The position numbers and the translations under genes are program-made. Positions 1,048 to 3,384 of a DNA stretch of 4,077 bases are shown piece after piece (the first letter of the stretch is position 1; the number at the start of each line of letters is the position of its first letter). Source of the stretch: a virus (lineage: Duplodnaviria; Heunggongvirae; Uroviricota; Caudoviricetes); IMG/VR virus record IMGVR_UViG_2671181040_000009. One strand, 5' to 3'. A model generated the notes under the pieces. It did not search any database and was not told where the DNA came from. It saw only the letters and a list, made by a program, of their open reading frames with translations.

Positions 1048-1481
1048 GCAGGGTAACCGTTATTATCTCCGCTCTGGTTATCTGCATTATCGCCTGCCTG
1101 TCATGGGCTGTTAATCATTACCGTGATAACGCCATCGCCTACAAAGAGCAGCGCGATAAAGCCACATCCATCATCGCTGATATGCAGAAGCGGCAACGTG
1201 ATGTAGCAGAACTTGACGCCAGATACACAAAGGAGCTTGCTGATGCTAATGCGACTATCGAAAGTCTCCGTGCTGATGTTTCTGCTGGGCGTAAGCGCCT
1301 GCAAGTCTCCGCCACCTGTGCAAAGTCAACGACCGGAGCCAGCAGCATGGGCGATGGAGAAAGCCCAGGACTTACAGCAGATGCTGAACTCAATTATTAC
1401 CGTCTCCGAGGTGGAATCGACAAGATAACCGCGCAGGTTAACTACCTGCAGGAATACATCAGGACGCAGTGCTTAAAATAA
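1044..1481 (+). CDS. Rz: Rz i-spanin (inner-membrane spanin subunit), lambda-like, 145 aa from ATG 1044
   Basis: [31 protein letters not shown]... matches the lambda Rz N-terminus ([31 protein letters not shown]). N-terminal TMD then a charged coiled-coil periplasmic domain. ATG 1044-1046 overlaps the endolysin stop TGA 1045-1047 (ATGA). The ORF track starts at GTG 1032, but ATG 1044 matches the lambda Rz start and is preceded by a GGGGG SD. Confidence 0.9.
1243..1428 (+). CDS. Rz1: Rz1 o-spanin (outer-membrane lipoprotein spanin subunit), embedded in the +1 frame of Rz, about 61 aa
   Basis: ORF in the +1 frame lies entirely inside Rz. From ATG 1243: [36 protein letters not shown]..., with a lipobox-like VSAC and a Pro-rich mature region, as in lambda Rz1. 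AGGAG SD at 1231-1235, 7 nt upstream. The track start at TTG 1213 is less likely. Confidence 0.75.
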
Positions 1482-1518
1482 TTTTAATTTCACTGAAATT
1501 TAACAAGTGACTTTCAGG

Positions 1519-1548
1519 AAAATGCCTCGCAGATGCGGGGCATTTTTG
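1519..1548 (+). terminator. Rho-independent terminator downstream of Rz/Rz1
   Basis: GC-rich stem 1524-1530 GCCTCGC pairing with 1535-1541 GCGGGGC (one G-U), tetraloop AGAT, extended by A:T pairs (1519-1523 with 1542-1546), followed by a T-run at 1543-1547. An A-tract upstream allows bidirectional function. Confidence 0.7.
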
Positions 1549-1699
1549 TACCGGTATTTCACCGCGCACCGCAGCGCACAATAAACACCGAACCTGACCC
1601 TTTGGAATGGGCCTTTGAGGATACCAGTTAGTGCTGGCGAGCCTCGGTGGGCTGGTTTCCTGTGCGGCAAAGGTTCATTTCAAAGAAGCAGGCAACGCC

Positions 1700-2248
1700 A
1701 TGAATGAATTAATTGCGAATCATGACTTCGACTTTCGCCAGTTAGTTACCGCAGCAGAAGGTCAACCGGTAACTGACACCTTCCAGATTGCCAGGGCATT
1801 TGGTAAACGCCATCAGCATGTGATTAGGGCTATTAAATGTTTGAGATGTTCTGAGGAATTCTCGACAACCCATTTTTGGGCCGTCGAGAAAATCAATGAC
1901 TTAGGTATTTTTGACAAGAAACAGATTTACTACCGCATGGACTTTAGTGGCTTCGTTATGCTGGTTATGGGATTTAACGGGGCAAAAGCCGATGCTGTTA
2001 AAGAAGCCTATATCAATGCGTTTAACTGGATGTCAGCAGAACTCCGTAAGTACAGCGAAAGTTATGAAGCAGAACGTAACGCCGTAATGCTGGAGTACAT
2101 GAAAGAGAAGGATGTCGCCAGCATGTCAGGCCGTCTGCTCAATCGCTGGGGGAGAACGAAAAAAACTCAATTGCTTGCAAAGCTGGAACGTCTGGAGAGA
2201 CAGGGACAGTTTTTATTACCGGGATTCGATAAAGGTATTCAAGCCTGA
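1700..2248 (+). CDS. Rha-family phage regulatory protein (Phage_pRha-like domain), about 182 aa from ATG 1700; alternative GTG start at 1631
   Basis: Motifs VTDTFQIARAFGKRHQHVIRAIK and GFVMLVMGFNGAKADAVKEAYINAFNWM resemble the conserved Rha-domain blocks (FGKRHdnVlRdI and LLvMgftGkkA...YIeaFN) as I recall them. The short C-terminal tail is helical and charged. Start is ambiguous: ATG 1700 (MNELIANHDF...) or GTG 1631 with a GAGGA SD 9 nt upstream. Confidence 0.6.
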   Translation: MNELIANHDFDFRQLVTAAEGQPVTDTFQIARAFGKRHQHVIRAIKCLRCSEEFSTTHFWAVEKINDLGIFDKKQIYYRMDFSGFVMLVMGFNGAKADAVKEAYINAFNWMSAELRKYSESYEAERNAVMLEYMKEKDVASMSGRLLNRWGRTKKTQLLAKLERLERQGQFLLPGFDKGIQA

Positions 2249-2435: not shown

Positions 2436-2630
2436 TCATCCATCATCACTTTGGATTGATGTATATGCTCTCTTTTCTGACGTTAGTCTCCGACGGCAGG
2501 CTTCAATGACCCAGGCTGAGAAATTCCCGGACCCTTTTTGCTCAAGAGCGATGTTAATTTGTTCAATCATTTGGTTAGGAAAGCGGATGTTGCGGGTTGT
2601 TGTTCTGCGGGTTCTGTTCTTCGTTGACAT
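2436..2630 (-). CDS. ylcI: Small ribbon-helix-helix-like DNA-binding protein, YlcI/YnfO (DUF3950)-like, 64 aa
   Basis: Reverse-strand ORF MSTKNRTRRTTTRNIRFPNQMIEQINIALEQKGSGNFSAWVIEACRRRLTSEKRAYTSIQSDDG: basic N-terminus, then a beta-strand/helix/helix pattern (NIRFP / NQMIEQINIALEQ / NFSAWVIEACRRRL) typical of Arc/CopG-type RHH proteins. Same length (64 aa) and same position beside the Nu1 homologue as ylcI in E. coli K-12 DLP12, as I recall. ATG confirmed as reverse complement of 2628-2630. SD is weak. Confidence 0.6.
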   Translation of the reverse strand: MSTKNRTRRTTTRNIRFPNQMIEQINIALEQKGSGNFSAWVIEACRRRLTSEKRAYTSIQSDDG

Positions 2631-2838: not shown

Positions 2839-3384
2839 ATGGAAGTCAACAAAAAGCAGCTGGCTGACATTTTCGGTGCGAGTATCCGTACCATTCAGAA
2901 CTGGCAGGAACAGGGAATGCCCGTTCTGCGAGGCGGTGGCAAGGGTAATGAGGTGCTTTATGACTCTGCCGCCGTCATAAAATGGTATGCCGAAAGGGAT
3001 GCTGAAATTGAGAACGAAAAGCTGCGCCGGGAAGTTGAAGAACTGCGGCAGGCCAGCGAGACAGATCTCCAGCCAGGGACTATTGAGTACGAACGCCATC
3101 GACTTACGCGTGCGCAGGCCGACGCACAGGAGCTGAAAAATGCCAGAGACTCCGCTGAAGTGGTGGAAACCGCATTCTGTACTTTCGTGCTGTCGCGGAT
3201 CGCAGGTGAAATTGCCAGTATTCTCGACGGGATCCCCCTGTCGGTGCAGCGGCGTTTTCCGGAACTGGAAAACCGACATGTTGATTTCCTGAAACGGGAT
3301 ATCATCAAAGCCATGAACAAAGCAGCCGCGCTGGATGAACTGATACCGGGGTTGCTGAGTGAATATATCGAACAGTCAGGTTAA
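2839..3384 (+). CDS. Nu1: Terminase small subunit gpNu1 (lambda Nu1-type), 181 aa
   Basis: MEVNKKQLADIFGASIRTIQNWQEQGMPVLRGGGKGNEVLYDSAAVIKWYAERDAEIENEKLRREVEELRQ... is essentially lambda gpNu1 (N-terminal winged-HTH DNA-binding domain) with a few substitutions. The 546-nt length and spacing to A match lambda coordinates 191-736. Confidence 0.95.
   Translation: MEVNKKQLADIFGASIRTIQNWQEQGMPVLRGGGKGNEVLYDSAAVIKWYAERDAEIENEKLRREVEELRQASETDLQPGTIEYERHRLTRAQADAQELKNARDSAEVVETAFCTFVLSRIAGEIASILDGIPLSVQRRFPELENRHVDFLKRDIIKAMNKAAALDELIPGLLSEYIEQSG

Follow-up and report, generated by a model that had tools for sequence, protein, structure and literature searches.

The gene at 1631/1700-2248 of a 4,077-nucleotide (nt) stretch of tailed-phage DNA (IMG/VR record IMGVR_UViG_2671181040_000009; the whole stretch is called the window below, and positions count from its first letter) is almost certainly a P22-type rha. 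It is preceded by a structured RNA leader that probably represses its translation. An initial annotation, made from the sequence alone, had described a Rha-family protein with an unusually short tail and an ambiguous start. We find instead that the gene is ordinary and that what looked "unusual" arose as an artefact when an RNA element was read as protein. The new part is the leader, a strongly supported and apparently uncatalogued RNA that sequesters the Shine-Dalgarno sequence (SD) and has a covarying alternative pairing. The whole reading combines a P22-type rha, a start at ATG 1700, an SD-sequestering leader, late read-through transcription and a possible switch, and we give it a probability of about 0.8.

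A structured RNA leader and the rha start codon

The features assigned to the leader and to the start of rha were as follows (MFE, minimum free energy).
1564-1577 (+): P0, a putative small hairpin (GCGC-ACCGCA-GCGC) upstream of the leader, found in most homologous leaders with varying stem sequences
1586-1591 (+): P1a (CACCGA), abutting the hairpin base on its 5' side and able to pair with P1b
1593-1692 (+): main leader hairpin, 100 nt, from the MFE fold, covariation and a covariance model
1593-1596 with 1689-1692 (+): anti-SD CCUG paired with SD CAGG, the base of the main hairpin
1600-1617 with 1668-1685 (+): lower stem and P2, with three G-U pairs
1618-1627 with 1652-1661 (+): P3
1631-1699 (+): phantom N-terminal extension (GTG 1631 plus 22 codons), most likely untranslated and part of the leader RNA
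1633-1642 (+): apical P4 (GCU-GGCG-AGC)
1644-1649 (+): P1b (UCGGUG), an apical bulge, partner of P1a
1662-1667 (+): 3' bulge GUGCGG
1689-1692 (+): CAGG, the probable SD of the real start, 7-9 nt before the ATG, its position conserved across leaders
1700-2248 (+): predicted rha coding sequence, 182 aa plus stop, from the conserved Met, the phrog_518 alignment and the IdasGreatGrand annotation

For comparison we collected 72 loci from one-genome-per-species contigs and walked upstream from the conserved ATG, which yielded 50 distinct leaders. When these were folded singly, the same imperfect hairpin of about 100 nt was the MFE structure in all 50 (-34 to -56 kcal/mol; -46.8 kcal/mol and z -2.9 for the window). 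The SD was paired in every MFE fold, with an anti-SD CCUUU facing an SD AAAGG in homologous leaders.

The helices are also maintained by covariation. RNAalifold predicted nothing on a MAFFT alignment of the 50 leaders (A3), in which two length classes were mixed; this was overcome with a subset and a covariance model. The subset (A4) was a MAFFT alignment of 21 diverse leaders, made with no structure fitting and with no window-type sequence. In it, 85.8% of cells were paired, compared to 37-56% with slid partners, and 18 pairs had changed on both sides, a number that none of 500 shuffles reached (mean 10.4). P3 and the apical P4 were almost fully compensatory. A covariance model built from this alignment (R1), again without window-type sequences, found the window leader at 1584-1702 (+) with 55.7 bits (E ~5e-11). 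In a model-fitted alignment of 53 distinct leaders (A6), 93.1% of cells were paired and 28 of 29 pairs were compensatory, while slid controls reached 35-50%. Since A6 leans towards the structure, A4 is the stronger covariation test. The P0 stem took several forms in A3 (GCGCC..GGCGC, GGCACA..TGTGCC, TGCC..GGCA). These comparisons indicate that the leader structure is very likely real, and the pairing of its SD suggests that it probably represses rha translation.

The conserved block could instead act as DNA, as an operator, an IHF (integration host factor) site, a promoter, or a recombination "linker" for swapping gene cassettes of the "Bro network", whose genes are known as sites of RNA regulation (PMC10111431, where the term is used). 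The block is common to genes for very different proteins (Rha, KilA-N, P22_AR_N, T5orf172, HNH_3), and modular exchange classically takes place at conserved flanks. The window is also enriched in IHF-consensus-like matches: WATCAANNNNTTR, with at most one mismatch, occurs 11 times against 3.8 expected. None of these matches falls in 1548-1699, which includes the leader, however; they sit in the AT-richer open reading frame (ORF). Moreover, a role as DNA would not account for the compensatory changes in 28 of 29 pairs, the tolerated G-U pairs, the helix that always ends on the SD, or the score of model R1, which was 131 bits on the gene strand versus 24 bits on the opposite strand. A linker role is compatible with an RNA function but does not replace it. 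We therefore consider a role as DNA alone improbable. As a separate observation, six of the 11 IHF-consensus matches lie inside the rha ORF (1703-2177), including a perfect one at 1891-1903, and the excess may reflect the AT-richness of the ORF (GC 42-46%, flanks 49-55%).

We next considered where translation begins. Counted from GTG 1631, the ORF encodes 205 aa (stop codon 2246-2248) and contains an internal in-frame ATG at 1700. As the initial annotation had noted, both codons are formally possible, and annotators disagree: the GTG was chosen by the Prokaryotic Genome Annotation Pipeline (PGAP) and in the P22 record, the ATG in phage IdasGreatGrand. Comparison of the homologues settles this ambiguity in favour of the ATG, which is very probably the true start (182 aa). 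The Met equivalent to ATG 1700 is nearly invariant and is the first residue of most of the diverged homologues (177-183 aa), and the phrog_518 match begins at residue 23 of the GTG form. An SD stands at the same position in relatives, as AAGG in P22 and as AAAGG in most others. Upstream of the conserved ATG, an in-frame stop is met within 24 codons in 31 of the 50 distinct leaders. No alternative in-frame start exists in 33, and the other 17 have candidates at scattered positions. A GTG at -23 is found only in the window, P22, IdasGreatGrand and locus L039. Although conserved, the upstream DNA stands in three different frames with respect to the ATG (LASLGGLVSCAAKVHF / SAGEPRRADFLCGKGS / RWRPLSGGFSVRQAHF). 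Considering these three frames and the in-frame stops in relatives, the 23-codon "extension" is conserved as nucleic acid and not as protein. The hydrophobic extension MLASLGGLVSCAAK of the initial annotation is thus best explained as a by-product of translating an RNA element, at a place where relatives have other frames or stops.

A start at GTG 1631 would give a 205-aa protein with a hydrophobic N-terminal extension that might serve separately, for example in membrane association or as a signal. In its favour, the frame is open from 1619, a GAGGA at 1617-1621 lies 9 nt before the GTG, the same GTG occurs in P22, IdasGreatGrand and L039, and it is the start used in RefSeq WP_024232585.1 and P22 DAA01042.1. 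This GAGGA had been called a good SD. It is indeed present, but it forms the 5' arm of helix P3, and the GTG lies in the apical region of the leader hairpin, so that both are inside the covarying RNA and we judge neither to be a translation signal. The few differences among the window, P22 and IdasGreatGrand in 1631-1699 are, in addition, mostly non-synonymous. Together with the short diverged homologues and the stops and frames described above, this makes a GTG start improbable.

Comparison with the other leaders further suggests that several reference starts are probably over-extended, namely those of P22 Rha (201 aa), phi80 Rha and RefSeq WP_024232585.1. Their GTG starts are inside the leader hairpin (position 2650 of the P22 locus L002, 2465 of the phi80 locus L076 and, for WP_024232585.1, 3150 of L001), and the conserved ATG would give proteins of 178, 172 and 182 aa, respectively. 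Thousands of prophage records would inherit such over-extension. Behind the leader, ORFs of the Rha and KilA-N types share the N-terminal peptides MNYPTV, MTYPTV and MNNPSV (e.g. window 1700-1730 and loci L016, L017 and L084). From these sequences, the conserved leader cassette seems to extend a few codons (the first 6-10) into the coding region.

An alternative pairing and the source of the transcript

A second pairing, P1, was found in the same leaders. Its 5' segments, 6-8 nt long, lie directly 5' of the hairpin base. At least six contiguous P1 pairs can form in 47 of the 50 distinct leaders, in about 16 sequence variants, whereas cross-paired leaders reach six in 20% of cases. Because P1a abuts the base of a stem of about 35 bp and cannot reach its apex, we infer that P1 and the full hairpin must alternate. 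The P1-enforced fold lies 5-15 kcal/mol above the MFE, and in several loci P1 is the preferred (MFE) fold of the nascent 5' part. A hairpin CCAG-UUAGUG-CUGG (1623-1637) appears in P1-enforced folds and was considered as part of the alternative fold. These results suggest a transient or regulated open state of the leader.

Whether that state is used for control is a more tentative matter. A regulated switch is possible, though we hold it to be the less probable outcome. Similarly doubtful is the wider proposal that the leader belongs to an undescribed family of two-state RNA switches, which in lambdoid late operons would gate rha and many further "moron" genes of the Bro network (Rha, KilA-N, P22_AR_N, T5orf172, HNH). 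A factor of the host or the phage, such as RNase III, Hfq, transcription speed or IHF status, would then govern the switching. If true, a two-state switch would explain why Rha is toxic only in IHF-deficient hosts.

Transcription of rha has to be considered together with one further element.
1519-1547 (+): intrinsic-terminator-like hairpin AAAAUGCCUCGC-AGAU-GCGGGGCAUUUUU, directly after Rz and followed by a U run, from its fold and conservation

The fold of 1482-1580 contains this hairpin as a 13-bp stem (-32.9 kcal/mol, z -4.45). It is flanked by A and U runs and is a strong terminator candidate. P22 and IdasGreatGrand carry exactly the same hairpin, and in phi80 a putative terminator is annotated at the corresponding place. 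P22, phi80 and Stx phages also share the succession of terminator, leader and ORF. The initial annotation had correctly placed the gene just downstream of a terminator and had stated that it needs either its own promoter or Q-mediated read-through. A consensus scan of 1482-1700 detected no sigma-70-like promoter, which favours the second option. By analogy with P22 and phi80, the rha mRNA would most likely stem from Q-modified polymerase reading through the terminator. Q and pR' lie outside the window, and late expression is taken from the annotated late operons of these two phages.

The A/T-rich 3' end of Rz together with the terminator (1482-1549) had sub-threshold Rfam matches to OmrA-B and GcvB (Hfq-binding small RNA 3' ends) and to the Leu leader. 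This segment could be a small RNA derived from a 3' untranslated region, or the matches could reflect generic terminator similarity.

We propose the following course of events. The rha gene would be transcribed most likely only within the late operon, when Q-modified RNA polymerase passes the terminator at 1519-1547. Translation would begin at ATG 1700, after an RNA leader of about 115 nt. The dominant hairpin (1593-1692) would pair the SD with the upstream anti-SD and so keep Rha translation low. The pairing of 1586-1591 with 1644-1649 probably defines an alternative or transient translation-competent conformer, which would form first on the nascent RNA, and the leader would thereby act as a kinetic or regulated switch.

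Several points weigh against this proposal. The start, the RNA fold and the repression all come from sequence comparison, and the z-score of the window hairpin alone is modest (-2.9). P1 could be a tertiary or intermolecular contact rather than an alternative pairing. The GTG at 1631 with GAGGA at -9 is formally a good initiation site; it has been kept in the window, P22, IdasGreatGrand and L039, and was chosen by two annotation pipelines. Finally, a weak promoter in 1548-1590 could escape a consensus scan.

The Rha protein and its genomic setting

The family was founded on rha (ORF201) of Salmonella phage P22, and the ORF is the orthologue of that gene in an E. coli prophage. The profile hidden Markov model (HMM) comparison that the initial annotation had called for was run and places the protein in the Rha family: PF09669 (Phage_pRha) matches residues 48-135 with 75 bits (E 7e-21, cut-off 29.9) and TIGR02681 matches with 73.1 bits (cut-off 45.95). 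The phrog_518 match has an E-value of 3e-86. By megablast, window positions 1482-2151 are 90.9% identical to P22 rha over 670 nt in many P22 records, and the P22 Rha protein is 84% identical to the window protein. The main differences from P22 are in the last ~30 residues and in a patch of the Rha domain (nt ~1790-1890). In the P22 record BK000583, rha (39575..40180) directly follows gene 15/Rz1, just as the window gene follows Rz, and phi80 rha has the same synteny. The RefSeq name for the identical E. coli gene is "Rha family transcriptional regulator". Segment 1482-2440 occurs at 100% identity in seven complete E. coli genomes, and at least 80% of it is carried by 292 genomes.

P22 rha is a late-operon gene that is detrimental without IHF (PMC4936722). 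According to that paper (citing Mozola and Friedman 1985; Henthorn and Friedman 1995), P22 and phi80 rha are the namesakes of the family and their products inhibit phage growth in IHF-deficient hosts. The phi80 record likewise annotates rha with "DNA synthesis inhibition in IHF- hosts", and a phenotype of this kind is known for the P22 and phi80 genes only.

Two domains were assigned to the protein.
1772-2035 (+): Rha domain (Pfam Phage_pRha), predicted beta-beta-helix-helix-helix-beta-beta-helix, from HMM matches and the AlphaFold2 model
2060-2221 (+): ORF11CD3 domain (PF10549), forming the latter half of a long helical hairpin, from the HMM match and the AlphaFold2 model

In the AlphaFold2 model (mean predicted local distance difference test score, pLDDT, 76), a small alpha/beta N-domain is followed by two long helices (95-140 and 144-168, numbered from the ATG), which bears out the earlier description of the C-terminal third as helical. 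The suggested comparison of this model with known structures gave a mixed outcome. Foldseek matched Rha, antirepressor, KilA-N and Bro-N proteins among viral models (BFVD), but against the PDB nothing was significant (best E 0.73, weak winged-helix regulators), and a sequence-profile search of solved structures returned a chance match only. Because the PDB matches are insignificant, we assign no structural function to the Rha protein. As modelled, Rha + ORF11CD3 is a small two-domain member of the Bro network, with a predicted DNA-binding Rha domain at the N-terminus and a helical hairpin at the C-terminus.

The patch at 1790-1890 (Rha residues ~31-64, numbered from the ATG) is strongly diverged from both P22 and IdasGreatGrand, while the rest is 90-100% identical. 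It exists in two allelic types, RHQHVIRAIK.LRCSEEFST.HFW and RHADVLRALKNCHCSEDFRRAHFC, which assort independently of their flanks among homologues. Since the patch covers predicted helices 2-3, it may represent a swap of DNA-binding specificity.

The tail is not unusually short, as had been claimed. Residues 144-197 match the full ORF11CD3 profile (positions 1-54; E 7e-22, 77.8 bits, cut-off 25), and P22 Rha has the same Rha + ORF11CD3 architecture. The phi80 Rha, unlike the window protein, has no Pfam match to ORF11CD3 but is equally short. Rha + ORF11CD3 proteins of 177-205 aa were found in almost all of the best 120 homologue clusters. The architecture is therefore canonical, that of the prototype P22 Rha; the protein is not new, and its architecture should no longer be called unusual. 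The tail is in fact the best conserved part of the protein, with a mean pairwise identity of 83% versus 56% in the Rha domain. Across the 29-codon core of ORF11CD3, 32 distinct loci compared with the window differ at 386 synonymous and 82 non-synonymous codons, a ratio that points to strong purifying selection on this domain. A search with ORF11CD3 alone against 1.8 billion representatives returned 22 clusters, mostly fragments, and was uninformative on partner domains. The ANT (PF03374), P22_AR_N and P22_AR_C domains were not found in the window protein at E <= 0.01.

That rha is a degenerate or truncated antirepressor, non-functional cargo that has lost an effector (KilAC/ANT) domain, is very improbable: Rha + ANT/KilAC is indeed encoded behind the same leader in some relatives (L012, 224 aa) and several phage records use the label "anti-repressor", but the architecture is intact in hundreds of clusters, its C-terminal domain is under the purifying selection just described, P22 and phi80 rha have genetic phenotypes, and neither a frameshift nor an ANT-domain remnant was found downstream.

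In the window, which represents the late region of a lambdoid prophage of E. coli, the genes stand in the order holin, lysozyme, Rz/Rz1, rha, ylcI-like gene, Nu1, terminase.
344-550: P21-type holin
550-1047: lysozyme
1044-1481: Rz, with the Rz1 frame embedded
1213-1428 (+): expected Rz1 o-spanin, a +1-frame ORF inside Rz with a lipobox (LLGVSAC); Rz1 is likewise annotated in P22 and phi80
1631/1700-2248 (+): rha, the target ORF
2436-2630 (-): YlcI/YnfO (DUF3950) gene, 64 aa, between rha and Nu1
2839-3384: Nu1
from ~3359: start of the large terminase subunit

Beyond the YlcI/YnfO gene, 2640-2838 is AT-rich (GC 39%) and should contain cos. Promoter-like sites were predicted on both strands at 2765-2805.

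Distribution of the leader and comparison with known RNAs

The leader is not restricted to the window and P22. It precedes phi80 rha (130 bits), where it ends on an ATG 36 nt downstream of the annotated GTG, and also a second phi80 ORF, x171.28 (L076 3980-4080). In Stx phage phiON-2011 it stands before both a P22_AR_N + ORF11CD3 "ant" gene and a Rha gene, and the "ant" gene with the leader in the Stx phage sits between lysozyme and Rz. Copies before genes other than rha also include those at L077 1022-1142 and L012 2087-2204, and the leader precedes a Rha + KilAC gene in Rosenbergiella.

An exact-pattern scan of viral contigs found the leader in at least 120 contigs. These were mostly near-identical leaders, and we used them only for the content of downstream genes and not for covariation. 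The ORFs behind them (L079-L198) were mostly 160-180 aa among the matches listed, and the proteins included Rha + ORF11CD3, Rha + ANT-like, other Rha, P22_AR_N-type, KilA-N, T5orf172/MUG113 and HNH_3. Genes of the domain-shuffling Bro network thus have this leader in common as a 5' cassette. Ant-type antirepressors (P22 Ant and KilAC/ANT proteins) belong to the same network as the window Rha. Behind the same leader, relatives combine Rha with ANT or P22_AR_N with ORF11CD3, and the genes of L012 and phiON-2011 ant carry ANT/P22_AR domains that the window protein lacks.

No Rfam 15 family matched the leader in searches of the whole window (E <= 1), of 1480-1720 (E <= 10) and of nine homologous loci (E <= 0.1), which returned noise only at the leader positions. 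Rfam 15 thus lacks a leader that precedes two classical phage genes as well as the regulators and nucleases of an entire domain-shuffled network. This leader offers a concrete, mutable handle on how potentially toxic late-operon passengers stay quiet, and it reopens, in testable form, the question, dating from 1985-1995, of how IHF status controls Rha toxicity.

In the hok mRNA and in the leader of the MS2 maturation gene, long-range pairing of an anti-SD with an SD competes with a 5' structure that can arise earlier, on the nascent chain. The window leader would share this combination with both. It differs from them in that no antisense partner or processing site was identified for it, and it has no sequence relationship to either.

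The closest parallel comes from another prophage leader. IsrK, in the leader of the antirepressor-like AnrP gene in Gifsy-1, adopts either an inactive fold, in which the ribosome-binding site is concealed, or an active alternative (PMC4825925). In Rfam, isrK, C4 and c4-a1b1 all fall on one leader of about 200 nt upstream of AnrP (STM2616), at 34131-34329 (-) of the Gifsy-1 locus L199. Because these families coincide there, the published IsrK system is a C4-type immunity RNA locus. We rejected membership of the window leader in the C4/IsrK group (Rfam clan CL00128, RF01394): the Rfam C4, c4-a1b1 and isrK models match Gifsy-1 and neither the window nor the nine homologous loci, and model R1 gave no match on the Gifsy-1 isrK locus (12 bits). 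Unlike IsrK, the window has no evident upstream small ORF or terminated short isoform. Nevertheless, the IsrK/C4 leaders (Gifsy-1 AnrP, and also P1 c4-icd-ant and P4 CI-seqA) are, like the window leader, prophage RNA leaders before a Bro-network gene. They are its nearest concept, with a seemingly similar way of working in a different RNA family.

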